From an uncultured Eubacterium sp. (lineage in GTDB: Bacteria; Bacillota; Clostridia; Lachnospirales; Lachnospiraceae): a stretch of 64,000 nucleotides of DNA. Under the pieces are notes generated by a model. It saw only the letters and a list, made by a program, of their open reading frames with translations. It was not told the origin of the DNA and did no database searches. A program made the translations under genes and the position numbers. Location: NCBI RefSeq assembly GCF_934295145.1, contig NZ_CAKRAS010000005.1:5544-69543 (forward strand). The letters are read 5' to 3'. This document shows positions 14,601-35,712 of this stretch, one piece after another; the stretch's first letter is position 1; each line of letters begins with the position of its first letter.

Positions 14601-14633
14601 TCGTTAAACAGGGGAGAGAAAGGTAATTAAAAG

Positions 14634-15971: not shown

Positions 15972-16003
15972 AAACAGAAAATGAATAAAGAGGATTGAGT
16001 ACA

Positions 16004-16858: not shown

Positions 16859-16870
16859 AGGAGAAGAACA

Positions 16871-17659
16871 TTGATAAGAAAATGCTGCGTGGAAGATATA
16901 GAATATCTGAAAGGTATAATTAAAAAAGATATATTTCAAAATGTGTACCTGTATATTGATACAAGCACATACGGATTTGAAAATCAGGATATTCAGACAT
17001 GGATTATTTCTGATCATGCGATGGATACGGTAATTGTATATAAATATTATAACAGTCTGCAGATTTTTGAAATATCAGATCCAAGCGATGAAAATATAAG
17101 AGAAATATGTTTTTTGATTGAAAAAAATGACAGTCAAATGTTGTCAGGATCAGTAGAACTGATACGAAAAATTTCCTGTCTGCTGCCGGAATGGAAAAAA
17201 ACGGAAGGCATTATTATGAAAGCCGGACAGGGAGCGGCAAAAGCGGATTCAGAAGTCTGTAAGGCAAATTCAGATGAGTGCTATGAAATCGCATCACTTA
17301 TTTGTGCAGATGAAGGAATCGGTGGACATTATTCTGTGGCACTGCTGGAAGAACAGCTGCAAGACAGAATGCAAAACTGGCATTGTCAGAATTTTGTTTT
17401 AAAAGAAAATGGAACGATTGTTGCACATATGGGAACATATGCAGATGTGGAAGGTATTGCAGTGTTAGGCGGACTGGTAACAACTCCGGCAGCACGGGGA
17501 CAGGGATACGGAAAGCGTGTACTGCAAAGCCTGACGGCACAGGTGATAAAGGAGCAGAAAGTTCCGGTATTATATTGTTATGAACAAAATGTAATGGACT
17601 GGTATAGACATCTTGGCTGGACACAGGTTTATAAATGTGCGAAGCTGGAACGTAAATGA
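16871..17659 (+). CDS. GNAT-family N-acetyltransferase with N-terminal extra domain
   Basis: C-terminal LVTTPAARGQGYGKRVLQSL is the acetyl-CoA-binding Q/RxxGxG motif. The start is a TTG, 7 nt after AAGGAG. Confidence 0.6.
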   Translation: MIRKCCVEDIEYLKGIIKKDIFQNVYLYIDTSTYGFENQDIQTWIISDHAMDTVIVYKYYNSLQIFEISDPSDENIREICFLIEKNDSQMLSGSVELIRKISCLLPEWKKTEGIIMKAGQGAAKADSEVCKANSDECYEIASLICADEGIGGHYSVALLEEQLQDRMQNWHCQNFVLKENGTIVAHMGTYADVEGIAVLGGLVTTPAARGQGYGKRVLQSLTAQVIKEQKVPVLYCYEQNVMDWYRHLGWTQVYKCAKLERK

Positions 17660-17673
17660 CAGGAGGAATACTG

Positions 17674-18837
17674 GTGCCAAATCTGATGGAAAAAAGCAGG
17701 ATGATAAAATCCAATAGCAGGGAAAGTGTTGCCACAAAACAGAAAGAATATAACTGGGGAATCGATTTTTTACGGATTGTTTCCATGTTTATGGTTGTAT
17801 GTCTTCATATGCTTGGAAGAGGTGGAATCCTGGATTATGCCCCTTTTTTATCCGGAAAATATGAAGTGGTGTGGCTGATTGAAATCGCTGCTTACTGTGC
17901 GGTAAACTGCTATGCATTAATTTCCGGATATGTGGGAATACATGGAAAATACCGGTATTCAAACTGGGTACTCCTGTGGCTGAGAGTATTATTTTATTCC
18001 GTTCTGATTACAGTTGTTTTCAAATTTGCTGCACCTTCTGTAGTGGGACGGTATGAGTGGACAAGTGCGATCTTCCCGACATCGAGAGAACAATACTGGT
18101 ATTTTACAGCGTATACAGGATTGTTTCTCCTGATCCCGGTACTTAATTTTTTTATATCGCATGCATCAAGAAAACAATTGAAACTGGTTGTTATGTTGGG
18201 GATTGTACTGTATTCTGTATTGCCGGAATTATTCAGACGGGATATTTTTGTTACGAAAGAGGGATACAGTCCAATCTGGATGATCGTTTTGTATATTATT
18301 GGCGGTTATCTTGGAAAATACCAGGGATGGAAGAAAAAATCAAAACGACACCTTGGTTTTATTTATATCGTATGCATAGCGGTAACCTGGTTAGGAAAAT
18401 TTGTGATTGAACATCATCGTTTTGGTGTGAGTGGAGATACGAATCAGACAACATTTCTGGTGAGTTACACATCACCGACCATACTATTGGCCGGAATTGC
18501 ACTGGTTATACTTTTTTCAAAGCTGAATGTAACTGAAAAATGGAAGAAGTTCATAAAACTATTTGCACCGGTCTCATTCAGTGTATATCTGATACATTTC
18601 CATCCATTGGTGAAAGCGTATATATTGCAGGATCGGTTAAAGGGACTATTAAATTATAATGTGGTGCTGATGCTGCTGGCATTTCTGGCAATTGTTGTAT
18701 CGGTATATTTTATATGTTCTTTTATTGATATGATCAGGGAATATATATTTAAAAAATTGAAAGTGAAAGATAGACTGATAAAACTGGAACATAAATATCT
18801 TGAAAATACCTGGGATAACATAGAAAGAAAGGGTTAA
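17674..18837 (+). CDS. Acyltransferase-3 family membrane O-acyltransferase
   Basis: YNWGIDFLRIVSMFMVVCLHMLGRGG and a polytopic profile. AGGAGG (17661-17666) is followed 7 nt later by an in-frame GTG at 17674. The listed start at 17656 is also possible. Confidence 0.65.
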   Translation: MPNLMEKSRMIKSNSRESVATKQKEYNWGIDFLRIVSMFMVVCLHMLGRGGILDYAPFLSGKYEVVWLIEIAAYCAVNCYALISGYVGIHGKYRYSNWVLLWLRVLFYSVLITVVFKFAAPSVVGRYEWTSAIFPTSREQYWYFTAYTGLFLLIPVLNFFISHASRKQLKLVVMLGIVLYSVLPELFRRDIFVTKEGYSPIWMIVLYIIGGYLGKYQGWKKKSKRHLGFIYIVCIAVTWLGKFVIEHHRFGVSGDTNQTTFLVSYTSPTILLAGIALVILFSKLNVTEKWKKFIKLFAPVSFSVYLIHFHPLVKAYILQDRLKGLLNYNVVLMLLAFLAIVVSVYFICSFIDMIREYIFKKLKVKDRLIKLEHKYLENTWDNIERKG

Positions 18838-18840
18838 GAA

Positions 18841-20163
18841 ATGGAATCAGTATCTATGAAAAAAATGTGGGACTCTATCTGGAAGCATAAAATAATCATA
18901 ATCATATTTGTGCTGCTCTGCTTTGTTGCAGGAGCCGGTCTGGGTGTAAAGAAAGCGAAATCTGCATCATCCGCATCTGAAGTACAGAAGATTGAAGATT
19001 ATAAGAGTGGCCTTGATAAGTATGCGGAGGTTATGAAGAATATTGAAGCAAATATTTCAACCACGCAGGATCAGATTGATGCTTTGCAGAAATATTGTGA
19101 TTCATCTATCTATATGAAGCTTGATGCATTAAATGTAAACGTGGCTTCTGTGCAGTACCGTATTACCGTGAATGGTACAGACAACACACAGGTTTCTTCA
19201 TCTGGTGTAAGTGAAAAAGTTACAGATATTATAAACGAGTTAACTGCATATGTGAAAAATGGTGAATGGAAAGCTGCGGTAGAAGAAAAATTGCCGGATG
19301 TGCCGGTAGAATATTTGCCGGAAGTGGTTGGCAGCAATTCAACCGGAAATATTTTTACTTTGACTGTTATGCATTATGATGCTGATCAGGCAGCAAAAAT
19401 CAGTAAGGTAATTGATGAGCAGATTCAGAAATATGCAGCTTCTACATTAAAAGAAAACGGTGATTTTTCATTTTCTGTTATTTCAAGTAATGTATCTGCC
19501 AAGGCAATACCAGAGGTACAGTCAGCACAAAACAGTTATCTTACTTCACTGAAAAACTATAAAGACAGCCTGTCTGATCTGCAAAAAGATCAGTTATCAC
19601 AGCAGATATCAGAGAAAGGTTATATAAAGGACTATAAACCAGACAGCATGGATGCACCAAGTGCAAAAAAAGTGCTGGTTCAATATGCCGCTCTGGGAAT
19701 CATTGCCGGACTGGTGATCAGTTGTGCTCTATTAGCGCTTTTATATGTGTTAAGTGATAAATTAAAAGGAACAGAAAATATAAAGGCGGCCGGAATTACT
19801 GTTCTTGGTAATTATTCCGCAAAAGAGGGGTATTATCCGGCACTGGAACGCGAAATGATAGATTTTGATCTGATCAGAAAAGAACATTCTGTTGAACAGG
19901 TATTTTTGGGAATGCTGAGTGATGCGGAAATTGTACAGAAAGCTGCGCAGGAATATCAGGCTGCAATGGAAAAGAAATCACTTGGTGTAGAAGTCGGAAG
20001 CAATATTGAGAATGATTCTGAGATGATGAAGCAATTCGTCGAAATTGGAAACTGTATTTTATTTGTTGAAGTCGGAAAAACCACATACACACAGATCAAA
20101 GCTTATTTGGAAATTTGCAAAAAATTTAATGTTTCTGTTTTAGGATGTGTTGTAGTTGAATAA
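18841..20163 (+). CDS. Second Wzz/CpsC-like co-polymerase fused to degenerate CpsD-like domain (paralog of 3014-4453)
   Basis: It has the same architecture. TM1 is IIIIIFVLLCFVAGAGLG and TM2 is LGIIAGLVISCALLALLYVL. The C-terminus is ILFVEVGKTTYTQIKAYLEICKKFNVSVLGCVVVE, with no Walker A at the expected position. Confidence 0.6.
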   Translation: MESVSMKKMWDSIWKHKIIIIIFVLLCFVAGAGLGVKKAKSASSASEVQKIEDYKSGLDKYAEVMKNIEANISTTQDQIDALQKYCDSSIYMKLDALNVNVASVQYRITVNGTDNTQVSSSGVSEKVTDIINELTAYVKNGEWKAAVEEKLPDVPVEYLPEVVGSNSTGNIFTLTVMHYDADQAAKISKVIDEQIQKYAASTLKENGDFSFSVISSNVSAKAIPEVQSAQNSYLTSLKNYKDSLSDLQKDQLSQQISEKGYIKDYKPDSMDAPSAKKVLVQYAALGIIAGLVISCALLALLYVLSDKLKGTENIKAAGITVLGNYSAKEGYYPALEREMIDFDLIRKEHSVEQVFLGMLSDAEIVQKAAQEYQAAMEKKSLGVEVGSNIENDSEMMKQFVEIGNCILFVEVGKTTYTQIKAYLEICKKFNVSVLGCVVVE

Positions 20164-20165
20164 TT

Positions 20166-21392
20166 ATGAAAATATTAAGTAAAACAAAACGGAAAATGTT
20201 GTCCGGAATAAGTAACCCGAGTGCAGGAGAACAATTGTACCTGTTGGCATTTTTTGTTTTTCTGATCAGTGAGACATTTTCGACAACCATGTTTCAGCTT
20301 CCGGGGAGTGCATATACACTTTGCAAAGCAGTGGCATGTTTATTGCTGATTATAAAAGTGTTTCGCTTTGATGAATTTTCGAGAAGAACATTTTTTATAT
20401 TTGTATTGTTAATACTGGAAGCTATTCTGGTATATGTTAATTCCGGATATATGGAAGTATTCTTTTGGGTACTTTTTGTGATGAGTGCAAAAAATGTTTC
20501 ATTTAAGAAAATACTGAAGGTATATCTGATCGTTACGATCAGCATTGTGCTTTTAGCTTTTTGCGCATCCATGTTGCAGGTGATAGAAAATCTGCAGTAT
20601 ACCAGAGGTGATGGAAAACGGGTCAGAAATTCATTTGGTGCAATTTATACAACGGATTTTGCATCACATATTTTTATGATCACGATGTCTGCGTTTTATT
20701 TGCTGAAGGACAAGCTGAAGACATGGCATTTTATTCTTGGAGCGGTTGTGGGAGTATTGGTTTACTGTTTTTGCAATACACGTCTGGATATGGGCTGTCT
20801 GTTTCTTATGCTGATCTGTTTTTATTGCATCAGCCAGGGATATGTTGCAAACGGTAGAAATATTTTCAGTACAGGAAAAGAAAAGAAGGCTTTACCTTAC
20901 AGCATGCCAATTGCAGCAGGATTTATGTTTGTCGCATCCTATTTTTATAGTTCTGGAAATTCTATTTTCCTGGCATTAGACAGTTTTATGTCAGCTAGAT
21001 TGAAATTGGGGCATAAGGGATTGATGAAATATGGAATGACGTTATTTGGACAGTCGATAAAAATGGTTGGAAATGGTGGGACTACAAAGATATCGGCTTC
21101 CCAATATTTCTTTATAGACTGTTCGTACCTGTATATTTTTCTGCGATATGGAGTGTTTTTTTTACTGATCACATTGGCGGTATACATGATGTGCTGCAAA
21201 AAGTATCAAAATGATCCATATTTTATAGCAGTTATCATTCTGATATCCATTAATTGTATGATCGCGCATCATATCATAGAATTAACGTACAATCCGTTTG
21301 CACTGGCATTATTTGCAGCGGCACCGCAATTGGAACAAAGAGACTGTAGGAGTAATAATAATAAATGGTCAAGATTAAATCTGTTAAAGTAA
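20166..21392 (+). CDS. Polytopic membrane protein, probable Wzy-type polymerase of locus B
   Basis: About 10 or more TM segments, with a loop motif SARLKLGHKGLMKYGMTLFGQSIKMVGNGG...FIDCSYLYIFLRYGVFF that resembles Gram-positive repeat-unit polymerases. Confidence 0.5.
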   Translation: MKILSKTKRKMLSGISNPSAGEQLYLLAFFVFLISETFSTTMFQLPGSAYTLCKAVACLLLIIKVFRFDEFSRRTFFIFVLLILEAILVYVNSGYMEVFFWVLFVMSAKNVSFKKILKVYLIVTISIVLLAFCASMLQVIENLQYTRGDGKRVRNSFGAIYTTDFASHIFMITMSAFYLLKDKLKTWHFILGAVVGVLVYCFCNTRLDMGCLFLMLICFYCISQGYVANGRNIFSTGKEKKALPYSMPIAAGFMFVASYFYSSGNSIFLALDSFMSARLKLGHKGLMKYGMTLFGQSIKMVGNGGTTKISASQYFFIDCSYLYIFLRYGVFFLLITLAVYMMCCKKYQNDPYFIAVIILISINCMIAHHIIELTYNPFALALFAAAPQLEQRDCRSNNNKWSRLNLLK

Positions 21393-22840
21393 ATTTTATA
21401 ATGAATATGATTCTTACGGCATCGACATTCATTTTTCCGTTGATCACATTGCCGTATATTACGCGTGTGCTTTCGGTAGAAGGTGTTGGTAAGGTAAACG
21501 TGGCTACTTCGATTGCTCAGTATTTTTCTATGGTAGCGATGCTTGGCGTGCCAACTTATGGTATTCGTGCATGTGCACAGGTAAGAGATGACAGAGAGAA
21601 GCTGACCAAAACAGTACAGGAGATTCTATTGCTGAATCTCCTTATTTCTGTTTTTGTGTATGCTGCTTATTTTGTGGCAGTATGGCAAGTGCCGAAGATG
21701 CACAATGATGCTGCTTTATACTGGATCATGAGTTCTACAATTATTTTTAATGTAATTGGTGTGGAATGGCTGTATAAAGGTTTGGAGCAGTATACTTATA
21801 TTACAGTGCGGTCGATTATCTTTAAAGCAATCGGTCTGGTGCTGATGTTCCTGTTTGTCAGACATCAGGGAGATTACGTTATCTATGGAGCAATCAGCAT
21901 TGTGGCTACGGTTGGATCTAATTTCCTGAATTTTATTAATCTGAGAAAGTATGTTAATCTGCGACCGGTAGGGCATTATGATTTAAAACACCATTTCAAA
22001 GAAGTAATGATTTTCTTTGCAATGGCAGCAGCAACGACAATTTATACGAATCTGGATAACGTTATGCTTGGTTTCCTGAAAAATGAAACGCAGGCAGGCT
22101 ATTATGGAACATCCATAAAAATTAAAGGATTACTGGTAAGTTTTGTTACAGCTTTGAGTACTGTATTGTTGCCAAGGGTTTCTTATTATATTGAGCGTGG
22201 AATGAAAGAGGAATTCAAACGGGTGAGCAGAAAAGCGTTACATTTTGTGGTACTGCTTGCGTTGCCGGTAACGGTATATTTTATTTTGTATTCCCGGGAG
22301 TCTATCTTTCTGCTGGCCTCCAAAACATATGAAAATTCTATTATACCAATGCAGATCATTATGCCGACAGTACTTCTGATCGGCCTGACAAATGTTTTAG
22401 GATTACAGATCATGGTGCCGATCGGAAAAGAAAAAATGGTATTTTATTCTGTACTTGCCGGAGGAATTGCAGATTTTGTTGCAAATATGATTTTTATTCC
22501 AACAATGTCGGCAGCTGGTGCTGCGCTTGGAACACTGATCGCAGAGACTGTTGTTCTGATTGTTCAGCTCATTGTATTGCGTGACTGGATCAGGGATTTG
22601 TTTTCAGAAGTACAATGGGTAAAAGCATGTGTATCTACCGCGGTAGCAGGAGTTGCCTGTTATGGAGTAAAAGCACTGAATTTATCAAATTTTATAGCCC
22701 TGGTAATATCGGTATGTGTTTTTGGAGCAGTATATGCGGTATTACTTTTGATTATGCGGGAACCGTTATTCCTTGAGGTATTACAGGATGTATTGCATGG
22801 GAAAGTGAAACGTGGAAAGGCAGAGAAAGATGGAGAATAA
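21365..22840 (+). CDS. wzx: Wzx-type flippase (MOP superfamily), second copy
   Basis: NMILTASTFIFPLITLPYITRVLSVEGVGKVNVATSIAQYF is Polysacc_synt-like, and the protein has ~14 TM segments. Confidence 0.75.
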   Translation: MVKIKSVKVNFIMNMILTASTFIFPLITLPYITRVLSVEGVGKVNVATSIAQYFSMVAMLGVPTYGIRACAQVRDDREKLTKTVQEILLLNLLISVFVYAAYFVAVWQVPKMHNDAALYWIMSSTIIFNVIGVEWLYKGLEQYTYITVRSIIFKAIGLVLMFLFVRHQGDYVIYGAISIVATVGSNFLNFINLRKYVNLRPVGHYDLKHHFKEVMIFFAMAAATTIYTNLDNVMLGFLKNETQAGYYGTSIKIKGLLVSFVTALSTVLLPRVSYYIERGMKEEFKRVSRKALHFVVLLALPVTVYFILYSRESIFLLASKTYENSIIPMQIIMPTVLLIGLTNVLGLQIMVPIGKEKMVFYSVLAGGIADFVANMIFIPTMSAAGAALGTLIAETVVLIVQLIVLRDWIRDLFSEVQWVKACVSTAVAGVACYGVKALNLSNFIALVISVCVFGAVYAVLLLIMREPLFLEVLQDVLHGKVKRGKAEKDGE

Positions 22841-23879
22841 CATTGTGATTTCTTTTATTATACCGGCACATAATTCAGAAAAGTTTCTGAAAAGATGTGT
22901 GGAAAGTGTAGTAAAAGAGGAAAAGCAGCCAAAAGATAACAACCTGGCTGAAGTCATAATTATAGAGAATGGTTCTTCCGATCATACAAAACAGATTGGA
23001 ACAGCTTTGGCTGAAAAGTATGAGAATGTTTTTCTGATCTGTTCTGAAAAAGGTGTTTCGAATGCAAGAAATGCTGGAGTAAAAGCTGCACATGGAGAAT
23101 GGATTTTTTTCTTGGATGCAGATGACTATCTTCCAGCAGGAACTTTGCAGAAATTATTGGATACGGTAAATAGCGGAAAAGCGGCAGATCTGTATATTTT
23201 CAGTTATGAAAAAGGAAATGCGATCGTAAATGTTGCAACTGGAGAAAATGCAGACGGTTATGAAGGAACCGGGGTACGGGAATGCCTTGCAGGAATGCTT
23301 AGGAACCCGACACGCTGCATGGCTGTCTGGGGGAAATTGTTCCGGCATAGTATTATTCAGCAATCTTCATTAGATTTTAATAAAAAATTAAGCCTGGCTG
23401 AAGACAGTGATTTTCTGATTCGGTATATAATGAAGTGTGGCAGGATCATTTTTTCACAGGAATCCTGTTATCATTATTCTACGGATGCAGGTTCTGCAAT
23501 GCGGACATATGACGGGAAGAAGACGGAAGGATATCTGTTATCTCTGCAGACAACACAGAATGCGATACCGGAGAATGACCAACAGTTATATCAGGCTTAT
23601 CAGGTGTATATTTTAATGCATCTGAATATAATGATGGTCAGAGAAGTATTTTCAGCGGGAAACAGAGTAGTTTTTTCAGAAAAGGTAAAGGCATTGAAGA
23701 AGCTTCTGCGGGAGGAAATATTTCAGAAAGCATTGCAGGCTGTACCGGCAGCTTCCTGTAGATCTGCGCGTATGATGCCAATATTGCTTTTGAAATTTCA
23801 GCAATATTATTTGTGTGGAAAAGTGTATGAACTGCGTGCAAAGCAGAATGAAAAAAGAGAAATGCGGACAGAGGATTAG
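22830..23879 (+). CDS. GT2-family glycosyltransferase
   Basis: ISFIIPAHNSEKFLKRCVESV, IIIENGSSDHT and FLDADDY (DXD) motifs. Confidence 0.8.
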   Translation: MENNIVISFIIPAHNSEKFLKRCVESVVKEEKQPKDNNLAEVIIIENGSSDHTKQIGTALAEKYENVFLICSEKGVSNARNAGVKAAHGEWIFFLDADDYLPAGTLQKLLDTVNSGKAADLYIFSYEKGNAIVNVATGENADGYEGTGVRECLAGMLRNPTRCMAVWGKLFRHSIIQQSSLDFNKKLSLAEDSDFLIRYIMKCGRIIFSQESCYHYSTDAGSAMRTYDGKKTEGYLLSLQTTQNAIPENDQQLYQAYQVYILMHLNIMMVREVFSAGNRVVFSEKVKALKKLLREEIFQKALQAVPAASCRSARMMPILLLKFQQYYLCGKVYELRAKQNEKREMRTED

Positions 23880-23883: not shown

Positions 23884-25539
23884 ATGGAAGAGAACTATGT
23901 GGATGTAAATATGCAAAGGAATGGTAAAGCGAAAGAGCAGATTCATGCGGCATCACCGAAAAATGCAATTATTCTTGCTGCCGGATATGGCATGCGAATG
24001 GTTCCAATCAATACAGAAGTGAGCAAAGGGCTTCTGGAGATTCACGGGGAACCACTAATCGAAAGGTTGATCCGGCAGCTTCATGAAGCGGAAATATACG
24101 AGATATATATCGTAGTTGGATTTATGAAAGAAAGATATGAATATCTGATTGATGAATATCGGGTGGAGTTGATCGTAAATCCGGAATATACAACGAAAAA
24201 TAACCTGTATTCACTGAAATGTGCAGAAAAATATATTTCAAATACGTATATAGTCCCATGTGATATCTGGTGTGAACATAACCTGTTCCGAAAGCAGGAA
24301 TTACACTCTTGGTACATGGTAAATAATTCTTTAAAACCAGACAGCTGTGTCTTAGTAAACCCAAATATGGAACTGAATCTGATATCAGAGACAGATGCCG
24401 GAAATGGTATGATTGGTATTTCTTATCTGACAGGAAAGGAAGCTCAGCTGGTAAAACAGCGGATAAAAGAGATGTGCAGTACATCCTGTTATACGAGTGC
24501 ATTCTGGGAAGAAACGCTTTATGAAAAAAGAAAAATGATCGTGCCGGCCAGAGTAGTAGATGAAGCGGATGTAGTAGAAATTAATACATTTGAACAATTA
24601 CGGGAGTTGGATAGCGGTTGTGATCAGTTAAAAACAGATGCGATTCAGATTATTGAAGCAGTGTTCCGGGTGTCGCAAAAGGATATAAAGAATATTACTG
24701 TTCTGAAAAAGGGAATGACCAACCGGTCATTTTTATTTGAATGCAAAGAGAAAAAGTATATTATGCGAATCCCCGGTGAGGGGACAGATAAACTGATCAA
24801 CAGGCGTGAGGAAGCAGAGGTTTATCAGAAGATAGCAGATTATCATATATGTGACCGGGTAATTTATATGAATCCGGAGAACGGATATAAAATTACAGAA
24901 TATATGAACTCTGTCAGAAACTGCGATGCAGAGCAGATGGAAGATGTGAAAAAGTGTATGAAAAAATTGCGCGAGTTTCATGAATTAAAACTGAAGGTCA
25001 ATCACGAATTTGATCTGTTTGAACATATTCAGTTTTTTGAACAGTTGTGGGAGGGAAGCCCCTCCGCTTTTAAAGATTATGCGGAGACGAAAAGGAAAGT
25101 ATTTTCGCTGAAATCGTATGTGGAACAGTATTGCGGGCAGAAAGTACTGACGCATATTGACGCTGTTCCGGATAATTTCCTGTTTTGGGAGAAAAATTCA
25201 GAAGAAACTGACATCAGGCTGATTGACTGGGAGTATGCAGCAATGCAGGATCCGCATGTAGATATTGCGATGTTCTGTATTTATGCTATGTATAACAGAA
25301 CACATATTGATCAGACAATCGATGCTTATTTTACAGAGGGGTGTGCAGAAAACATCCGTATAAAAATTTATGCATATATAGCGATATGTGGTTTATTGTG
25401 GAGTAACTGGTGTGAATATAAGCGAAGCCTTGGTGTTGAATTTGGAGAATATTCGCTACGGCAATACAGATATGCAAAAGAGTATTATACGATTGTAGAG
25501 ACTGAGAGAAGAAAAGTGGAGATACAGGAACATGAATAG
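23884..25539 (+). CDS. Bifunctional LicC-like nucleotidyltransferase / LicA-like choline kinase fusion
   Basis: N-terminus has IILAAGYGMRMVPINTEVSKGLL (NTP-transferase G-loop, Arg and Lys retained). C-terminus has the kinase motifs THIDAVPDNFLF (Brenner HxDxxxxN) and LIDWEYA. Confidence 0.75.
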   Translation: MEENYVDVNMQRNGKAKEQIHAASPKNAIILAAGYGMRMVPINTEVSKGLLEIHGEPLIERLIRQLHEAEIYEIYIVVGFMKERYEYLIDEYRVELIVNPEYTTKNNLYSLKCAEKYISNTYIVPCDIWCEHNLFRKQELHSWYMVNNSLKPDSCVLVNPNMELNLISETDAGNGMIGISYLTGKEAQLVKQRIKEMCSTSCYTSAFWEETLYEKRKMIVPARVVDEADVVEINTFEQLRELDSGCDQLKTDAIQIIEAVFRVSQKDIKNITVLKKGMTNRSFLFECKEKKYIMRIPGEGTDKLINRREEAEVYQKIADYHICDRVIYMNPENGYKITEYMNSVRNCDAEQMEDVKKCMKKLREFHELKLKVNHEFDLFEHIQFFEQLWEGSPSAFKDYAETKRKVFSLKSYVEQYCGQKVLTHIDAVPDNFLFWEKNSEETDIRLIDWEYAAMQDPHVDIAMFCIYAMYNRTHIDQTIDAYFTEGCAENIRIKIYAYIAICGLLWSNWCEYKRSLGVEFGEYSLRQYRYAKEYYTIVETERRKVEIQEHE

Positions 25540-26239
25540 AGTAGAAAGAGCAATCATTATGGCTGCGGGAAAAGGAACCCGAATGAGACCGGTAACGCTG
25601 CATACACCAAAGCCATTGGTAAAAGTAAATGGAAAGAGAATGATTGACAGTGTAATTGAAGCACTGCATAAAAATGGAATATCTGAAATTTATATTGTGG
25701 TTGGATATCTGAAAGATCAATTTGAGATATTGCCCAAAGAATATGAAAACGTGAAGCTCATTGAAAATCCATTTTATGACACCTGTAATAATATTTCATC
25801 ATTATATGTGGCAAGAGATTATATAGAAAATGCCATTATATTGGATGGAGACCAGATCATTTACAATGAGAAAATTCTGGCCCCGGAATTTGATAGATCC
25901 GGGTACAATGCAGTTTGGACAGATGACGAGACAGAGGAATGGCTGATGACGGTGGAAAAAGGGATAGTTACTTCATGTAGCAGAACCGGTGGAAAAGGCG
26001 GATGGCAGCTGTATTCCGTATCAAGATGGAACGAAGCAGATGGAAAGCGTCTGAAACATCACCTGGAACTGGAATTTAATGAGAAATATAACCGACAGAT
26101 TTACTGGGATGATGTTGTAATGTTTTGTCATGCGGACGAGTATGAACTGGGTATTTGTCCGATGAACGCAGATGATGTAATTGAAATCGATAATCTGGAG
26201 GAACTGATAGCATTAGATGGATCATATAAAGATATATGA
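25532..26239 (+). CDS. licC: LicC-like CTP:phosphocholine cytidylyltransferase (stand-alone)
   Basis: AIIMAAGKGTRMRPVTLHTPKPLVKVNGKRMID and YIVVGYLKDQFE closely follow the pneumococcal LicC pattern. It overlaps the upstream gene by 8 nt. Confidence 0.7.
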   Translation: MNRVERAIIMAAGKGTRMRPVTLHTPKPLVKVNGKRMIDSVIEALHKNGISEIYIVVGYLKDQFEILPKEYENVKLIENPFYDTCNNISSLYVARDYIENAIILDGDQIIYNEKILAPEFDRSGYNAVWTDDETEEWLMTVEKGIVTSCSRTGGKGGWQLYSVSRWNEADGKRLKHHLELEFNEKYNRQIYWDDVVMFCHADEYELGICPMNADDVIEIDNLEELIALDGSYKDI

Positions 26240-27774
26240 TGAAATGCAGGGGAGGAGAAATGAAGAAGAAAATAGACTGGATGGTCACGTTAGTGCCATT
26301 TATTATAATTGTTGGTATTGCAGTGATTTTGTTTATATGGCCGAGAGAATCCAATGATGTAATACATCAGATAAGATTTTTCCTTGGAGATACACTGGGC
26401 AGCTATTATTTGATTATTGGCTTAGGCGTTTTATTGATATCTGTTTACCTGGCGTTTTCAAAGTATGGAAATATCGTACTGGGCGAACCTGATGAAAAAC
26501 CGAAATATTCATTTTTTGTATGGGGAAGTATGATGTTCACCTGTGGACTGGCAGCGGATATATTATTTTATTCCTTTGCTGAATGGATCATGTATGCAAC
26601 AAATCCGCATATAGCAGACCTTGGACCAGTGCATGAATGGGCAGGGGTATTTCCTTTGTTCCACTGGAGTTTCATTCCATGGGCGTTTTATCTGGTGCTT
26701 GCGGTTGCATTTGGTTTTATGCTCCATGTAAGAAAGCGAAAGCGTCAGAGATATTCAGAGGCATGCCGCCCGGTTATCGGAAAACATGCGGATGGTCTGC
26801 TGGGACGTGTAATAGATATGTTTGCGCTGTTTGCCCTGCTGGCAGGAACAGCGACAACATTCAGCGTTGCAACTCCACTGCTGGCAGAAATTGCAATGCG
26901 GTTATTTCATATTCATGTCAGCCGAACGGTTGTGACGATTATCATTTTGCTGATCACATGTGCTGTCTATACTTATGCAGTGTTACATGGCTTTAAAGGA
27001 ATCAGCTTTCTGGCAAAATTATGTATTTATCTGTTTTTTGGATTACTGGTTGTTGTGCTTGTGTTTGGCGGTCAGGGACGTTTCATTATTGAAAACGGAA
27101 TTCAGTCTCTTGGAAAAATGGTACAGAACTTCATTGGATTAGCGACCTACACAGACCCTGTCAGGGCAAATCATTTTCCACAGGACTGGACCATTTATTA
27201 TTGGGCATACTGGATGGTATGGTGTGTTGCTGCTCCGTTTTTTATTGGCAATATTTCAAAGGGAAGAACGATAAAACAGACAATACTTGGAGGATACGTT
27301 TTTGGTGTTGGCTCAACCATTGTAAGCTTTATCGTGCTGGGCAATTATTCTCTGGGATTGCAGGTAGCAGGAAGAGAAGATTTTATAGCTCAGTTTAAAG
27401 CAAACGGAGATTTGTATGATTTGATCCTTAATATTATACAGACAATGCCTTGTGCACCATTTATTCTGATTCTTACTTTTGTATGTATGATTGCATTTTA
27501 TGCAACATCCTTTGATTCTATAGCGTACACCGCAGCATGCTATAGTTATAAAGAACTTGGAGAAAATGAACATCCGCACACGTTAATTACATTATTATGG
27601 TGCGTTCTGTTGATCGTGTTACCAATTGCGCTTGTTTTTTCAGAAAGTTCTATGGGAAATATTCAGTCAATCAGTATTATTTCGGCTTTTCCAATAGGAA
27701 TCATCATGATCCTGATGATATGGAGCTTTTTTAAAGATGCAAAAAAGTATATCAGCAAAAGTGATACAAAATAG
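26236..27774 (+). CDS. BCCT-family transporter (choline/betaine type)
   Basis: WTIYYWAYWMVWCVAAPFFIGNISKGRTIKQ is the BCCT signature, and the protein has ~12 TM segments. The start is uncertain (26236, 26239 or 26260). Confidence 0.8.
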   Translation: MMKCRGGEMKKKIDWMVTLVPFIIIVGIAVILFIWPRESNDVIHQIRFFLGDTLGSYYLIIGLGVLLISVYLAFSKYGNIVLGEPDEKPKYSFFVWGSMMFTCGLAADILFYSFAEWIMYATNPHIADLGPVHEWAGVFPLFHWSFIPWAFYLVLAVAFGFMLHVRKRKRQRYSEACRPVIGKHADGLLGRVIDMFALFALLAGTATTFSVATPLLAEIAMRLFHIHVSRTVVTIIILLITCAVYTYAVLHGFKGISFLAKLCIYLFFGLLVVVLVFGGQGRFIIENGIQSLGKMVQNFIGLATYTDPVRANHFPQDWTIYYWAYWMVWCVAAPFFIGNISKGRTIKQTILGGYVFGVGSTIVSFIVLGNYSLGLQVAGREDFIAQFKANGDLYDLILNIIQTMPCAPFILILTFVCMIAFYATSFDSIAYTAACYSYKELGENEHPHTLITLLWCVLLIVLPIALVFSESSMGNIQSISIISAFPIGIIMILMIWSFFKDAKKYISKSDTK

Positions 27775-27919: not shown

Positions 27920-29041
27920 ATGTACAGAGTTCTTGTATTTGGAATGACAGAAAATCCCGGTGGTGTGGAAAGTGTGATCATGAACTATTACCGGTGTATT
28001 GATAAAACAAAAATACAATTTGACTTTCTTTGTAATTTTCATGAGAATGCGGCGTATGAGGACGAATTGGTCGCCATGGGCGGTAACGTTTTTCATATTA
28101 CAGCCCGCAGTGAGAATTATGGAAAATATAAAAAAGAATTGGAAGCATTTTTTGAAACTTCACAGGGTGTTTATGATGCAATCTGGGTAAACGTCTGTAG
28201 TTTGGCCAATATTGATTATCTGATCATGGCAAAAAAATATGGTATACCGCGGAGAATCATTCACAGTCATAATTCGCAGAATATGGACAGTAAACTGCGT
28301 GGCATGCTGCACAAAAGAAATAGAAAACGCATTGATAAATTCGCAACGGATTTCTGGACATGCTCTGAGGATGCTGCAAAATGGTTTTATGAAAAACGTC
28401 TGCTTCCGAAAGTTGTGATGATCCGAAATTCTATCTCAGTGGAACGTATGGCTTTTGATGAGGAAAAGCGTAAAAAATATCGGAAACAGTTGCAGTGTAA
28501 TGACGATATATGGGTGATTGGAAATGTCGGCAGACTGCATTTTCAGAAAAATCAGAAGTTCTGTCTGGAGATTTTTCAGCAGTTTTTGAAAAAAGATTCG
28601 AATGCCTGTCTGGTTCTGATTGGACAGGGCGAGGATGAAGCAGAGCTGAAGGAGTTGACCAGGCGGTATGGAATCAGCAAAAAAGTGTACTTTGCGGGAA
28701 TGCAGACGGATATCCGTGGATGGCTGAGTGCGTTTGATACTTTTTTGTTTCCATCTAAATTCGAGGGACTGCCGATAGCAGCGTTGGAAGCACAGGCGAA
28801 TGGCGTGCCAATGGTGGCTTCTGCAAAAGTAATACCGCAGGAAGTAAAAATTAATTCGAACTTTGAATTTGTGAATCTGGATGAGGGGGCAGTCGTATGG
28901 AGTGAGCACCTGAATCATATTCGGCAGACGATGAAACGTCTTGATATTTCAGAAGTAAAACAGAATTTTACGGAAAAGGGATATAATATAGAGACGGAAA
29001 CAGTAAAATTAGAGAAGTTGTTTTTAAAGGAAGTAAAATGA
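27920..29041 (+). CDS. GT4-family glycosyltransferase
   Basis: IGNVGRLHFQKNQ and FPSKFEGLPIAALEAQANGVPMVAS motifs. Confidence 0.75.
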   Translation: MYRVLVFGMTENPGGVESVIMNYYRCIDKTKIQFDFLCNFHENAAYEDELVAMGGNVFHITARSENYGKYKKELEAFFETSQGVYDAIWVNVCSLANIDYLIMAKKYGIPRRIIHSHNSQNMDSKLRGMLHKRNRKRIDKFATDFWTCSEDAAKWFYEKRLLPKVVMIRNSISVERMAFDEEKRKKYRKQLQCNDDIWVIGNVGRLHFQKNQKFCLEIFQQFLKKDSNACLVLIGQGEDEAELKELTRRYGISKKVYFAGMQTDIRGWLSAFDTFLFPSKFEGLPIAALEAQANGVPMVASAKVIPQEVKINSNFEFVNLDEGAVVWSEHLNHIRQTMKRLDISEVKQNFTEKGYNIETETVKLEKLFLKEVK

Positions 29042-30093
29042 AGAAATATCAAATTGTAGAAATTTCTGAAAATCATAATCATGCGGGAACAAAGGCAACT
29101 CAGGATATTACAGAGATTGCAGATCAGCTTGGGTATGAGCGGGTCATGATTCGCATGAATACAACAAAAAAGACAAAGCTTGCAAAAGTACAGCGGCAGA
29201 TTGGATATCGGAAAGACTGGGCAGAATGTCTGAAAAAGGTAGAGGAGAATGCTGTTATTTTATTACAGCATCCGTTTCATTATCCTCAATTAACCAGAGA
29301 AAAAACACTCATGGAACTGAAAGAAAAAAAACATGTGAAATTCGTCAGCCTGATTCATGATGTAGAGGAATTGAGAGCTTTTCGGTATAACGATTATTAT
29401 AAGGGTGAATTTGATTTTATGCTGCGCATTGCAGATGTATGGATCGTACATAATGCGGTGATGAAGCAGTTTTTTATAGAGTGTGGTGTTCCGGAAGAGA
29501 AAATTGTGACACTTGGAATTTTTGATTATCTGCAAAGTGGAAGTGTGTATAGAAAACCACAGTTTGAAAGATCCATTACGGTAGCTGGAAACCTTGATAC
29601 TGAAAAATGTGGATATGTTGGTCAGCTTGGTCAATTGTCAAGTGTACAGGTGAAATTGTTTGGAATGAATTATGATAAAAAAATGGATCAATGTGAAAAT
29701 GTACGGTATTACGGAAGTTTTCCAACAGATGAGATCCCTGGAAAATTGACGGGTGGTTTTGGTCTGGTATGGGATGGAGCCGGTATTGACGGATGTATCG
29801 GACAGTCCGGACAATATTTACGCTACAATAATCCACACAAATTATCATTATATTTATCAAGTGGTCTGCCGGTCATTATCTGGAAAGAAGCTGCGGAAGC
29901 GGCTTTTGTAAAAACACAGGGAGTTGGCATCTGTGTGGAATCCCTTAAGGAATTATCGACAATATTTGAAATGTTGGACGAGAATACGTATAATGGATAT
30001 GCAGAAGCTGCACAAGTGCTTTCAGAAAAATTAAGGACAGGACAGTTTGGCAGAAAGGCAATACGGACAGCAGAGGATATATTAGGATTATGA
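29038..30093 (+). CDS. Putative sugar transferase (WbbI-like / galactofuranosyltransferase-like family)
   Basis: GLVWDG...YLRYNNPHKLSLYLSSGLPVIIW resembles proteins usually annotated as beta-1,6-galactofuranosyltransferase in Gram-positive EPS loci. This is from memory and unverified. Confidence 0.4.
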   Translation: MKKYQIVEISENHNHAGTKATQDITEIADQLGYERVMIRMNTTKKTKLAKVQRQIGYRKDWAECLKKVEENAVILLQHPFHYPQLTREKTLMELKEKKHVKFVSLIHDVEELRAFRYNDYYKGEFDFMLRIADVWIVHNAVMKQFFIECGVPEEKIVTLGIFDYLQSGSVYRKPQFERSITVAGNLDTEKCGYVGQLGQLSSVQVKLFGMNYDKKMDQCENVRYYGSFPTDEIPGKLTGGFGLVWDGAGIDGCIGQSGQYLRYNNPHKLSLYLSSGLPVIIWKEAAEAAFVKTQGVGICVESLKELSTIFEMLDENTYNGYAEAAQVLSEKLRTGQFGRKAIRTAEDILGL

Positions 30094-30890
30094 GTAAGAA
30101 GAATATAAAAATAATAGTTGCTGCGCATAAGAGATATTGGATGCCGTCGGATGAAATGTATCTGCCGATACATGTAGGTCATGCAATCGCAAAGGAAGAT
30201 ATTGGATATCAGGGTGACGATACCGGCGAAAATATATCTGAGAAAAATGCAAACTATTGCGAATTGACAGGTATTTACTGGGCATGGAAGAATCTTGATG
30301 CAGATTATATTGGCCTGGTACATTACAGACGTTATCTGTCAAACAGGAACAGCGGTTTTCCTGTCTGGTTTAAGGATAAAAAAGAATCTGTTTTAACCTG
30401 GAAAAAGGCGAATCACATTTTGGAACATTATGATGTGATTGTTCCGAAAAAAAGAAATTATTATATAGAGACATTGTATAAGCATTATGAACATACACAT
30501 GATCACAAACATCTGGATATCACAGGAGAAATCATACAGTCTCTTTATCCGGCGTATGAGGAGACTTTTACGAGAATGCTTCAGCGTAAAAGCGGTCATA
30601 TGTTTAATATGTTTATTATGAAAAAAGAACTGTATCATGCGTATTGTGAATGGCTGTTCCCTGTTTTGCAGCAAGTGGAAAAGAAAATTGATACTAGCAA
30701 AATGACGCCGTATGAGGCCCGGTTTATGGGACGAATTAGTGAATTATTACTGGATGTGTGGTTGGAGCATAATCATATTGTATATAAGGAACTGCCCTGG
30801 GTTCAGCTCGGAAAAGAAAACTGGCCAAAGAAAATCAGATATTTCCTTGCGGCAAAATTTAAAAATAGAAAGTATGGACAGAGCTTTTAA
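30090..30890 (+). CDS. DUF4422-type putative glycosyltransferase
   Basis: IKIIVAAHKRY...LPIHVG...NANYCELTGIYWAWKN is the typical DUF4422 N-terminal signature seen in EPS loci. Confidence 0.6.
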   Translation: MSKKNIKIIVAAHKRYWMPSDEMYLPIHVGHAIAKEDIGYQGDDTGENISEKNANYCELTGIYWAWKNLDADYIGLVHYRRYLSNRNSGFPVWFKDKKESVLTWKKANHILEHYDVIVPKKRNYYIETLYKHYEHTHDHKHLDITGEIIQSLYPAYEETFTRMLQRKSGHMFNMFIMKKELYHAYCEWLFPVLQQVEKKIDTSKMTPYEARFMGRISELLLDVWLEHNHIVYKELPWVQLGKENWPKKIRYFLAAKFKNRKYGQSF

Positions 30891-30925: not shown

Positions 30926-30997
30926 TTAGACTTAGAGTTATTTATTGTAAAGAATGGGTGTAAATGTTACAAACATTTTTTGCAGAAAGGTGGGTTT

Positions 30998-32965
30998 ATG
31001 AAATTAAACAAGGCAATCATGGTGCTGGCAACAGCTGCCCTGCTCACGGGTATGTGTTCTGTGCCTGCGTTGGCAAAAGATGCTTCTGCCACTGTACCTG
31101 TGACAGGGACGCAGGAAGAAAAAACGGATGCGGAACAGCAGGAAATGTGGATTCGACACAATGGACATATAGATGATGTCAAAGAGTATGAAGTAGTGAA
31201 AAGTGAGGATACAGACTCTGTTTATCAGAAGATAAAGTATACCTGTACAGAAACGGGAAAGGAATATACCGCTACAGTACATACGGATGAAGCAAAGCAT
31301 ATCTGGAGTGACAAGTACACCATCGATCAACCTGCTACACCGGATCAGAAAGGGACAGAAAGCAAACATTGTACCGATGAAAAATGTGAGGCAGTGAGTG
31401 ATGTAAAAGAAGATGTAGACTGGGTTCCGGTGGCATCTATCTCATTTGGTGTAAAGGAAGTACATGTAACAGATGCCACACCATTTGAACTGGATACAGT
31501 TGTTTCACCGGAAAATGCATCAAACCAGGATCTGATCTGGGAATCTTCTGATCCGGGTGTTATTGCGGTAGATGCACAGACAGGTACCATTACACCGATG
31601 AAAAATGGTACCGCTACGATTACGGCATGGGATTCAGAGAAAAAGGTATCAGCATCCGTTAATGTAACAGCTGACATGGTCAATGGCATTATCAAAAACC
31701 AGGAAGATGGCAATTGGTACTACTATCACAATGGCTTGATTGACCGTACCTATACCAATGTCGCAAAAAATGCAAACGGCTGGTGGTATGTAAAAGATGG
31801 TCAGGTAGATTTTTCTTATACTGGTGTAAAAAGTAATGAAAATGGTTCCTGGCGAATCGTCAACGGAAAAGTAGATTTCAGCTGTAATGATATCGTAAAG
31901 AGTGAAGATGGCTGGTGGTATGTCCGTGGCGGAAAAGTAGATGATAGTCATACTGGTGTAGATAAAAATGCATATGGTTGGTGGCGTGTTGCTAACGGAA
32001 AAGTAGATTTTGACTGCAATAGTGTAGAAAAGAATTCTAATGGCTGGTGGAAAATCACAAATGGAGCTGTAGATTTTTCCTATACCGGAGTAGCAAAAAA
32101 TAGTCTTGGCTGGTGGCGAATTGTCAAAGGTAAAGTAGATTTTGGCTGCAATAGTGTAGAGAAGAATGAGCTTGGCTGGTGGTATATCCGCGGAGGTAAA
32201 GTAGATTTCAGTTATACAGGAGTAGCAAAGAACAGTCTTGGCTGGTGGCGAATCGTCAACGGAAAAGTAGATTTTAATTGTAATAGTGTAGAAAAAAATA
32301 ATCTTGGCTGGTGGTACATCCGCGGAGGTAAAGTAGATTTCAGTTATACAGGAGTAGCAAAGAACAACCTTGGCTGGTGGCGTGTTGCTAACGGAAAAGT
32401 AGACTTTGGCTATAATGGTATTGCGGTAAATAGTTATGGAGCTTGGTATATTCAAGGCGGAAAAGTGGATTTTGGTTACAATGGAAATATGAAGTGGAAT
32501 GGCACTGATTGTTATATTTCAAACGGAAGAGTGACAATGCAGGGCGTGAGCCCACAGATTGCTGCCAGGGCAGCTACCGCATCCAGTGATACAAGTTGGT
32601 TAATTGTTACAGATACGTCTGCTTGCAAGGTAGCTGTTTTTGCAGGGGCACAGGGAAACTGGTCAACTGTTAAATATATTTCCTGTAGTCCGGGTAAACC
32701 TTCTACACCGACAGTAAAAGGAGAATTTAAAGTAACAGGTCGAGGCTTATCCTTTGGAAAGCCAACCTATGATTGCTGGTATTATACACAGTTCTATGGA
32801 GATTATTTATTCCATTCAGTTATTTACAACAAAGGAAGTAAAACAAGTATTCAGGACGGACGTCTTGGTATGCAGTTATCTCATGGATGTGTAAGACTTG
32901 CTTTAAGTGAAGCAAAATGGATCCATGACAATATTCCAAACGGAACAAAAGTAATTGTATTCTAA
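30998..32965 (+). CDS. Secreted L,D-transpeptidase (YkuD) with Big_2 domain and ~13 cell-wall-binding repeats
   Basis: RBS AAAGGTGGG precedes ATG at 30998. Signal peptide is MKLNKAIMVLATAALLTGMCSVPALA. A Big_2-like VSPENASNQDLIWESSDPGVIAVD segment is followed by the repeats. The C-terminus has FHSV...QLSHGCVRL, the YkuD catalytic motif. Confidence 0.8.
   Translation: MKLNKAIMVLATAALLTGMCSVPALAKDASATVPVTGTQEEKTDAEQQEMWIRHNGHIDDVKEYEVVKSEDTDSVYQKIKYTCTETGKEYTATVHTDEAKHIWSDKYTIDQPATPDQKGTESKHCTDEKCEAVSDVKEDVDWVPVASISFGVKEVHVTDATPFELDTVVSPENASNQDLIWESSDPGVIAVDAQTGTITPMKNGTATITAWDSEKKVSASVNVTADMVNGIIKNQEDGNWYYYHNGLIDRTYTNVAKNANGWWYVKDGQVDFSYTGVKSNENGSWRIVNGKVDFSCNDIVKSEDGWWYVRGGKVDDSHTGVDKNAYGWWRVANGKVDFDCNSVEKNSNGWWKITNGAVDFSYTGVAKNSLGWWRIVKGKVDFGCNSVEKNELGWWYIRGGKVDFSYTGVAKNSLGWWRIVNGKVDFNCNSVEKNNLGWWYIRGGKVDFSYTGVAKNNLGWWRVANGKVDFGYNGIAVNSYGAWYIQGGKVDFGYNGNMKWNGTDCYISNGRVTMQGVSPQIAARAATASSDTSWLIVTDTSACKVAVFAGAQGNWSTVKYISCSPGKPSTPTVKGEFKVTGRGLSFGKPTYDCWYYTQFYGDYLFHSVIYNKGSKTSIQDGRLGMQLSHGCVRLALSEAKWIHDNIPNGTKVIVF
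31697..32540 (+). repeat. Coding array of ~20-aa NGWW repeats, 2-unit (A/B) superperiod
   Basis: Units alternate between GWWYIRGGKVDFSYTGVAKN and GWWRIVNGKVDF(G/N/S)CNSVEKN. Neighbouring copies are highly similar at DNA level. Confidence 0.85.
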
Positions 32966-35608: not shown

Positions 35609-35712
35609 CAGTGAAGGAATGTGGATTATCCAGAGCCCAATATGCTGATTTTAAAGTAATATGCAAAGTGAAAAATGCTCCAGCTACAGAAATGATAGTT
35701 GGAGTATTTTTT

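Follow-up and report, generated by a model that had tools for sequence, protein, structure and literature searches.

A predicted choline acquisition and activation cassette that closes a glycopolymer operon in a Eubacterium ramulus-like gut bacterium

We analyzed a 64,000-nucleotide (nt) stretch of DNA from an uncultured Eubacterium sp. (contig NZ_CAKRAS010000005.1, positions 5,544 to 69,543; hereafter the window), and within it three adjacent genes at 23884-27774. In order, these encode a LicC-like nucleotidyltransferase fused to a LicA-type choline kinase, a stand-alone LicC, and a transporter of the BCCT family. We consider it highly probable, from sequence, modelled structure and gene order, that these genes form a choline acquisition and activation unit, that this unit closes a long glycopolymer operon at its 3' end, and that it feeds phosphocholine to the cell surface. 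Judged by their E-values, the Pfam and PDB matches of the cassette and of its context genes rule out chance. A first-pass annotation of the same DNA, made from the letters alone, had predicted a wall polymer decorated with phosphocholine. As a prediction this is supported, in that every element of the pathway that can be examined in the sequence was present with its substrate-defining residues.

All three genes lie on the plus strand. The fusion gene (23884..25539, 551 amino acids) consists of an N-terminal nucleotidyltransferase domain of the LicC fold, which we call NT1 (23884..24678, with the motif AAGYGMR at nt 23977-23997), and a C-terminal LicA-type choline kinase domain (24679..25539), recognized by PF01633 and by similarity to LicA. 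It is followed by the stand-alone LicC gene (25532..26239, 235 amino acids) and the BCCT gene (26260..27774, 504 amino acids), the predicted choline importer. The open reading frame (ORF) list also offered longer starts, at 23815 for the first gene and 26236 for the third. We set the starts at 23884, 25532 and 26260 because on a metagenome contig identical to the window (100% over 20.7 kb; L001) the genes are called at 551, 235 and 504 amino acids. A strong GGAGG ribosome-binding site makes 26260, not 26236, most likely the true start of the BCCT gene. The first two genes overlap by 8 nt and 20 nt separate the second from the third, and the three are translationally linked. The overlapping or adjacent arrangement that the first-pass annotation had described was thus found as it had been drawn. 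In a promoter and terminator scan, promoter-like sites were no more frequent than in shuffled background.

The kinase half of the fusion matched Choline_kinase (PF01633) at 1.5e-19, with 70.9 bits where the cutoff is 29, and its top PDB sequence match was pneumococcal LicA (4r77, 6e-31). We located the P-loop GMTN at nt 24712-24723, the Brenner motif HIDAVPDN at nt 25153-25176 (THIDAVPDN in the sequence), IDWEY at nt 25222-25236 (LIDWEY in the sequence) and WSNWCEY at nt 25399-25419. When an AlphaFold2 model of the fusion (48-sequence alignment as input, pLDDT 85.4) was compared with known structures using Foldseek, it matched LicA (4r7b and 4r77) with TM-scores of 0.83-0.85 and an E-value of 2.6e-20; choline/ethanolamine kinases and PntC came after LicA and LicC in the hit list. 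The kinase had originally been recognized by its HxDxxxxN and IDWEY motifs, and both motifs, the Pfam match and the LicA fold confirm that assignment.

The choline pocket of pneumococcal LicA comprises T29, D176, V178, Y197, E213, W251, W254 and Y268, and its catalytic residues are N181, D194 and E196 (PMC4364537). The window kinase is identical to LicA at T29, D176, V178, N181, D194, E196, Y197, W251, W254 and Y268, so that seven of the eight pocket residues agree; the exception is E213, which is replaced by Tyr. Among 81 relatives, 12 of the 13 kinase positions scored were 100% constant and V178 was kept in 78. LicA K45 is Arg in the window kinase, the counterpart of Arg146 in human choline kinase alpha-2, which touches the alpha-phosphate of ADP (PMC4364537). 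From the conserved catalytic and pocket residues, we infer that the kinase half phosphorylates choline.

The stand-alone LicC matched NTP_transferase in Pfam, and its top PDB match was pneumococcal LicC (1jyk, 1.5e-33, 32% identity). In the pneumococcal enzyme, D105 and D192 lie beside the amine, an aromatic box is present, and E216 is in the metal sphere (Rice et al. 2019). With the numbering offset taken from HMMER alignments, the window LicC retains D105, D107, W136, Y190, W191, D192, E216 and D218, and both the GxGxR...K nucleotide motif and the metal ligands D107/E216/D218 are conserved. It had been described as close to the pneumococcal pattern, and with every pocket residue kept that description stands.

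NT1 presented a different picture. It matched NTP_transf_3 (3e-14) and NTP_transferase in Pfam over amino acids 51-157 of the long ORF, matched LicC 1jyk in the PDB by sequence (3e-25), and in the fusion model resembled 1jyk with a TM-score of 0.86 and a root-mean-square deviation of 2.3 Å. The core residues G14, G16, R18, K28, D107, W191 and E216 are retained, and in 81 sequences K28 was present in all, E216 in 78, and G14, G16, R18 and D107 in 80. Relative to LicC, NT1 carries Met17, Val20, Pro105, Phe190, Glu192 and Asn218, and a small deletion takes out W136. Because D105, W136, Y190, D192 and D218 of the LicC pocket are all altered or lost, we did not class NT1 as a LicC. This pattern recurred across the 81 sequences (Val20 in 69, Met17 in 74, Phe190 and Asn218 in 79, Pro105 and Glu192 in 80, no W136 in 81), and a pattern kept in 69-81 of 81 marks NT1 as a conserved, selected paralog rather than a decayed LicC. 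On this alignment NT1 combines an intact nucleotide and metal core with a remodelled substrate pocket. Since NT1 is a separate paralog with an altered pocket, the stand-alone LicC is likely the CDP-choline synthase, and its conserved residues predict that it turns phosphocholine and CTP into CDP-choline. The claim that a LicC-like domain is fused to the kinase therefore held for fold and overall similarity, whereas the domain itself proved to be a divergent paralog without W136, D105 and D192. NT1 may be an additional cytidylyltransferase, whether for choline or for a different head group, or a domain that senses an effector or ligand for the helix-turn-helix (HTH) domain that its relatives carry. 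As other identities for the nucleotidyltransferase domains we considered sugar kinase/nucleotidyltransferase pairs of the AmgK/MurU type and PntC, which acts on 2-aminoethylphosphonate (AEP), and rejected them; LicA and LicC were far better matches in sequence and structure, and there was no ppm gene.

The third gene product matched the BCCT family over the full length of its domain of 12 transmembrane helices (PF02028, 1.5e-123, 413 bits, profile positions 1-484) and scored 407.2 on TIGR00842, just under the cutoff of 407.55. It carries GLAAD in transmembrane helix 3 (TM3; nt 26545-26559), the tryptophan motif WTIYYWAYWMVW in TM8 (nt 27187-27222) and GRTI at nt 27262-27273. Its closest PDB sequence match was DddT (6e-88), followed by CaiT, BetP and a BetT structure. 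The Asp of GLAAD aligned with that of GIGID in Escherichia coli BetT, at a position that is Ala in CaiT and Gly153 in BetP, and BetP-G153D has been described as a BetP variant specific for choline. We found the TM3 Asp in at least 59 of 74 BCCT copies scanned by motif; the other 15 fell outside the search pattern. On the BetT equivalog model NF007399 the protein scored 191.6 bits against a cutoff of 695, and it is therefore not a BetT ortholog. We searched the genes of the window for a LicB/EamA permease and found none, so the replacement of LicB by a BCCT protein with the signature WxxYYWAYWxxW...GRTI, noted at first pass, was upheld. The BCCT protein takes the transporter position instead of LicB, and the sequence suggests that it imports choline.

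Gene order in other genomes supported the same assignment. The fusion family comprises more than 8000 clusters at 90% identity, and we examined 80 loci from Lachnospiraceae, Oscillospiraceae, Acutalibacteraceae, Erysipelotrichaceae, Granulicatella metagenome-assembled genomes (MAGs) and Treponema, of which 73 were informative, with at least 2.5 kb downstream of the fusion. LicC was present in 67 of the 73 and BCCT in 69, and all three genes stood in the same order and on the same strand in 64. This conserved order ties the transporter to the pathway. Two relatives of ~825-830 amino acids (P0009 and P0047) are HTH-NT1-kinase-LicC triple fusions whose C-terminal nucleotidyltransferase is the ortholog of the window LicC, which gives a Rosetta-stone link between kinase and LicC. 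Nothing beyond the triad itself was conserved in its surroundings in the 80 loci; a LicD gene lay within 10 kb in 22 of them and directly adjoined the triad in 9. With its order conserved and its surroundings variable, the triad is a self-contained and probably mobile cassette.

Departures from this arrangement were also seen. At five loci (L012, L013, L020, L027 and L047) the BCCT gene comes directly after the NT1-kinase gene and there is no stand-alone LicC in the flanks examined; these loci bear on whether NT1 alone makes CDP-choline, and L013 has two LicD genes immediately upstream. A second choline-kinase-like ORF follows LicC in place of BCCT at L035, L052 and L080 (about 12.4 kb). In Candidatus Treponema caballi, another HTH-nucleotidyltransferase-kinase paralog (L072:6195-8036), with an AAGMSSRF motif, V178 replaced by Tyr and Y268 by Trp, lies 3.5 kb upstream of an NT1-kinase and BCCT pair, so several families have this architecture.

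Most relatives of the fusion are ~590 amino acids long, share 63-65% identity with it and begin with a winged HTH (PF13412), which we found among relatives P0005-P0120 and, ~200 nt upstream of the NT1 domain, among loci L008-L085. The window fusion and those of L006 and L007 have no HTH, and a search upstream of 23884 for an HTH remnant found none. In the E. ramulus lineage the cassette, without HTH, was inserted as the last part of a glycan operon. One relative (P0005) is a mosaic, with a kinase half ~98-100% identical to that of the window fusion, an NT1 half only 45-75% identical and an HTH present, which suggests recombination inside the cassette.

The host had first been called a Clostridium. 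The window DNA was 97.3% identical over 19 kb to an 'uncultured Eubacterium sp.' MAG from Hadza gut and 91.6% identical over 7.5 kb to E. ramulus strain 21, and the 90% cluster of the BCCT protein includes proteins named Eubacterium ramulus and Roseburia sp. The identities point to an E. ramulus-like organism, in the class Clostridia and outside the genus Clostridium. NCBI taxonomy lists E. ramulus in Eubacteriaceae, and current genome taxonomies place it in Lachnospiraceae.

The cassette closes a run of genes from 3014 to 27774 that are all on the plus strand with gaps of at most 36 nt. The upstream part of this run (3014..23879) is a glycopolymer array in which Pfam identified Alg14/Alg13-like proteins, glycosyltransferases of families 4 and 2 (GT4, GT2), hexapeptide and GNAT acyltransferases, Wzy-like polymerases and two Wzx-type flippases. 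In order, it contains the Alg14/Alg13-like genes, a GT4 gene, an acetyltransferase gene, a Wzy-like gene and a second GT4 gene; then a first LicD gene, an acetyltransferase and a flippase; then genes for a TagF-like protein, for a class V aminotransferase and for a fusion of a TagD-like cytidylyltransferase with a Gfo/Idh/MocA oxidoreductase; and finally a second LicD gene, a GNAT gene, an acyltransferase-3 gene, genes for two membrane or chain-length-like proteins, a flippase and a GT2 gene, after which the lic triad begins. The first LicD, a candidate phosphocholine transferase (9469..10296), matched PF04991 at about 1e-40 to 9e-40 (137.5 bits). The second, a LicD-family phosphotransferase (15995..16858), matched it at about 1e-43 to 1e-42 (147.1 bits). 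LicD proteins encoded directly beside the triad in other genomes were mostly nearer the first than the second. The embedding of the cassette in a glycopolymer locus with LicD genes, part of the original description, is borne out by these two PF04991 genes and the Wzx/Wzy-type genes.

From these elements we propose a route to surface phosphocholine. Choline would be imported by the BCCT protein, probably with proton coupling by analogy with BetT, and phosphorylated by the LicA-type half of the fusion, and the stand-alone LicC would convert phosphocholine and CTP to CDP-choline. As the context indicates, a LicD, more likely the first, would then move phosphocholine to a surface polymer assembled by the Wzx/Wzy-type proteins, which may be teichoic-acid-like or a capsular polysaccharide or exopolysaccharide (EPS). 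By analogy with the pneumococcus, five repeat proteins encoded in the same roughly 40-kb locus, two of them peptidoglycan hydrolases, would dock on the phosphocholine. The activities, the acceptor and the repeat ligand in this scheme are predicted from the homology, folds, active-site and pocket residues and synteny that we observed.

All five repeat proteins matched Choline_bind_4 (PF21540) in Pfam, with E-values of about 3e-31 to 2e-69. Four are encoded on the plus strand downstream of the cassette, with E-values of 4e-48 to 2e-69: an L,D-transpeptidase with repeats (30980..32965), a SASA esterase with repeats (33116..35608), a LytC-like glycoside hydrolase family 25 (GH25) muramidase with repeats (36839..39235) and a LytB-like glucosaminidase with repeats (39262..41997). 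An acyltransferase-3 gene (35593..36759, plus strand) stands among them. The fifth, on the minus strand (955..2526), has no catalytic domain that we recognized; it matched PF21540 at 2.9e-31 and, in a phmmer search with the repeat region, scored 2.8e-44. The glucosaminidase domain had its best PDB matches in 4q2w/7pj3 (2e-27), which we take to be the catalytic module of pneumococcal LytB, and the GH25 domain with repeats is the LytC/Cpl-1 layout. We also noted cross-matches of 80-87% DNA identity between the repeat arrays of separate repeat-protein genes (31950-32407 and 35093-35550, and also in L006); such arrays probably lend themselves to recombination or to changes in array length.

Cell-wall-repeat proteins occurred in the flanks of 10 of the 80 loci and directly adjoined the cassette in four, as raw counts not set against background. 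Large proteins with classical GW...G.WYY cell-wall-binding repeats stand directly beside the cassette in L021, L043, L058 and L080; in L043 the protein sits between the kinase fusion and LicC. A functional link between such proteins and the cassette is possible.

Several other features of the window were recorded. Beside the second LicD gene, 12314-15971 encodes the TagF-like glycerophosphotransferase, the class V aminotransferase, which is PhnW-like (PDB 3f0h, 2e-155), and the TagD-like/oxidoreductase fusion, so that 12314-16858 looks like a second branch for a CDP-activated alcohol, CDP-glycerol-derived or possibly of an amino-alcohol or 2-glycerol type. Downstream of the cassette, after a 145-nt AT-rich gap, come further plus-strand glycosyltransferase genes (27920..30890): a GT4 gene, a Gtf3/beta-1,6-galactofuranosyltransferase-like gene and a DUF4422 gene. 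The last two, at 29038-30890, suggest galactofuranose in the polymer; the Gtf3-type gene scored 381.5 bits on the beta-1,6-galactofuranosyltransferase model NF007326 (cutoff 420). Four sizeable ORFs in or near the locus (3014-4453, 18841-20163, 20166-21392 and 158-874) gave no Pfam or NCBIfam match; the one at 18841 resembles a chain-length regulator and the one at 20166 a polymerase or ligase with multiple transmembrane segments. From 43 to 64 kb the window holds housekeeping genes (SpoVAD, IMPDH, GlnA, DapA/B/F, BipA and FBPase).

A number of observations weigh against the proposed pathway. Throughout the kinase family (81 relatives), Tyr replaces LicA E213, whose charge pairs with the quaternary amine. 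All NCBIfam equivalog scores of the BCCT protein are under cutoff, and the TM3 Asp is also present in its closest solved relative, DddT, a dimethylsulfoniopropionate (DMSP) transporter, so that this residue is suggestive of choline and not decisive. The need for two nucleotidyltransferase domains has no explanation, and five loci have no stand-alone LicC in the flanks examined. Enzymes of the LicD family transfer other phospho-alcohols as well, and beside the second LicD gene lies another CDP-alcohol pathway; the substrate of that LicD could be phosphocholine or the product of its neighbours, and this branch could be its true donor. Finally, an AlphaFold2 model of the repeat module (single sequence, pLDDT 80) formed a beta-hairpin solenoid that in a Foldseek comparison with the PDB resembled only generic beta-solenoids (E at least 0.006, TM-score at most 0.36) and no solved choline-binding domain such as those of LytA or CbpF, and a PDB sequence search with the repeats gave no match. 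The choline-binding label consequently rests on PF21540 and the LytB/LytC-like architectures: of the claim that five proteins bear choline-binding-type repeats, the five family matches stood and the fold comparison yielded no significant match.

We weighed these points as parts of competing explanations. It is possible, at well under even chances, that NT1 rather than the stand-alone LicC is the phosphocholine cytidylyltransferase, making the fusion a true LicCA as in Treponema denticola and leaving LicC redundant or devoted to another phospho-alcohol. The fusion of nucleotidyltransferase and kinase hints at coupled consecutive steps, NT1 has a complete LicC fold and keeps G14, G16, R18, K28, D107 and E216 each in no fewer than 78 of 81 sequences, and at five loci NT1-kinase is paired with BCCT where no LicC lies close by; one of these loci has two LicDs immediately upstream. 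However, W136, D105, D192 and D218 of the LicC choline and metal site are gone from NT1 and all present in the stand-alone LicC, and of 73 loci 67 keep the latter beside the fusion, while some relatives carry it as part of the fusion itself, which disfavours redundancy. We also entertain, tentatively and with no greater confidence, the view that the (HTH-)NT1-LicA/LicC/BCCT set constitutes a separate 'gut-type' choline cassette, mobile by horizontal transfer, in which NT1 is not a phosphocholine cytidylyltransferase but a ligand sensor (for CTP, CDP-choline or phosphocholine) controlling the HTH, or a second cytidylyltransferase for another head group. As a sensor it could be an enzyme-repressor of the NadR or BirA kind that autoregulates choline capture, and the E. 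ramulus lineage would have dropped the HTH on wiring the cassette into a constitutive glycan operon.

The remaining alternatives concern what the cassette carries and where it goes. CDP-choline might be made and its head group passed to a lipid or glycolipid, either in phosphatidylcholine, as with T. denticola LicCA and a CDP-alcohol phosphotransferase (CPT), or in a choline-phosphoglycolipid or lipoteichoic acid anchor like that of Mycoplasma fermentans (Mf1). Both window LicDs have the Mf1 diacylglycerol cholinephosphotransferase model as their sole NCBIfam match, the T. denticola fusion serves phosphatidylcholine synthesis, and in most genomes the triad lies away from glycan genes, with LicD within 10 kb at only 22 of 80 loci. 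We nevertheless regard a lipid acceptor as unlikely: the Mf1 scores (65-73 bits) are far under the 225-bit cutoff, a search of the window for a CPT found none, the cassette here includes overlapping genes, sits within a Wzx/Wzy glycan operon and is flanked by wall-binding hydrolases, and the precedent in Clostridium immunis is an EPS. A substrate other than choline (ethanolamine, N-methylated ethanolamines or another onium alcohol), and so a decoration other than phosphocholine, seems to us distinctly unlikely. It would fit the DMSP transporter as best structural relative of the BCCT protein, the Tyr at LicA E213, the acidic and smaller-looking NT1 pocket (E192 as in AEP-specific PntC, no W136), and the promiscuity of the choline/ethanolamine kinase family, ethanolamine kinases being among the fold matches. 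Against this, the complete LicA aromatic box (Y197, W251, W254, Y268 and V178) and the LicC box (W136, Y190 and W191 with D105 and D192) are conserved, the two pneumococcal choline enzymes are the top matches in both sequence and structure, and BCCT cargo consists of quaternary ammonium or sulfonium compounds, not ethanolamine. That the BCCT protein is an unrelated glycine betaine osmoprotectant importer, merely neighbouring the lic genes, we consider highly improbable. The NCBIfam betaine_BCCT and CaiT models do outscore the BetT model, all of them under cutoff, but a BCCT gene holds its place in the cassette in 69 of 73 informative loci across several families and whatever the surrounding genes; in the window it lies 20 nt downstream of LicC with its own ribosome-binding site, at the position of BetP G153 it carries the Asp seen in BetT, and the locus has no other choline importer.

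The locus with its proposed route to surface phosphocholine is a variant of the known Lic pathway and not categorically new, and the idea has only lately come under test in this group of bacteria. What goes beyond the literature we consulted is the conserved NT1(-HTH) module and the consistent replacement of LicB by BCCT. A compact cassette for choline import and activation, with a BCCT transporter, is conserved over many gut genomes, and its second LicC-fold domain, which is strictly conserved and in most cases linked to an HTH, awaits explanation. If the sensor or second-enzyme view of NT1 were true, a large fraction of the Firmicutes in the gut would regulate host or dietary choline and spend it on surface phosphocholine by an undescribed mechanism. 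Surface phosphocholine is a ligand for C-reactive protein, natural anti-phosphocholine antibodies and the platelet-activating factor receptor. The E. ramulus-like cassette together with LicD and autolysin-type repeat proteins gives a testable gene set for asking which gut commensals show phosphocholine, and it bears as well on competition for choline alongside trimethylamine-forming bacteria and on whether anaerobes have a pneumococcus-like, choline-dependent wall physiology. In C. immunis, phosphocholine-bearing EPS has been tied to host adiposity and metabolism (bioRxiv 10.1101/2024.06.12.598703).

The likeness to NadR, an HTH joined to an NMN adenylyltransferase and a ribosylnicotinamide kinase, is one of architecture only: relatives of the fusion have the same HTH, nucleotidyltransferase and kinase order, but neither folds nor families are related, the window fusion is without HTH, and a regulatory role is purely hypothetical. 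E. coli BetT shares with the window transporter the BCCT family, the TM3 Asp (GIGID versus GLAAD) and the TM8 aromatic motif. It is only 26% identical, has a long C-terminal osmosensing extension, and supplies betaine synthesis rather than phosphorylation. In T. denticola LicCA, an N-terminal nucleotidyltransferase and a C-terminal choline kinase perform both steps for phosphatidylcholine. The order of domains is common to LicCA and the window fusion; LicCA, however, feeds a cholinephosphotransferase, whereas the window has a separate canonical LicC, a remodelled NT1 pocket and no CPT.

Phosphocholine had been called poorly studied in commensal Clostridia, which is only partly true given the C. 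immunis preprint and the choline-containing teichoic acids of solventogenic species. For Clostridium acetobutylicum N1-4, now C. saccharoperbutylacetonicum, knowledge of choline in teichoic acid and of large choline-binding protein families goes back to 1988. This organism and C. beijerinckii are likewise anaerobic Clostridia, and their choline-binding proteins include lytic enzymes; they are, however, soil or industrial Clostridium sensu stricto with classical choline-binding repeats, and our comparison covered teichoic-acid choline, choline-binding proteins and habitat. A 2023 survey of phosphocholine genes (PMC10434233) did not mention Clostridia, Firmicutes or BetT, and BCCT went unmentioned in the 25 best-ranked of 56 papers on lic genes and phosphocholine. 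In C. immunis, licABC is required, and suffices, for the modification of an EPS with phosphocholine, as established by deletion, transfer to C. symbiosum, nuclear magnetic resonance and anti-phosphocholine blot, and its authors found homologous loci in many gut commensals and suggested horizontal transfer (bioRxiv 10.1101/2024.06.12.598703). Compared by description, both systems are three-gene operons of kinase, choline transporter and licC in gut Clostridia. Primer sequences for C. immunis licABC had no match in the related loci and metagenome contigs, and its operon is flanked by mobile elements, whereas the window cassette lies inside a glycan operon with LicD and repeat proteins.

The pneumococcal Lic pathway is the closest parallel, and the differences are specific. 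The importer here is a BCCT protein rather than LicB, of the DMT/EamA type, which PMC8890701 describes as the conserved importer of the Lic pathway in pneumococcus and Haemophilus. Fused to the window kinase is an additional LicC-fold domain of divergent type, the repeats are Choline_bind_4 (putative choline binders) rather than classical CW_binding_1, a TarIJ-type CDP-ribitol module was not seen in the window, and the host is an obligately anaerobic gut commensal. Shared with the pneumococcus are the LicD genes, wall hydrolases joined to repeats (a LytB-like glucosaminidase and, as in LytC, a GH25 muramidase), and LicA and LicC as closest relatives in sequence and structure with their pockets conserved. 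Together these genes predict the same succession as in the pneumococcus, from choline to phosphocholine to CDP-choline to phosphocholine on a Wzx/Wzy-type polymer.

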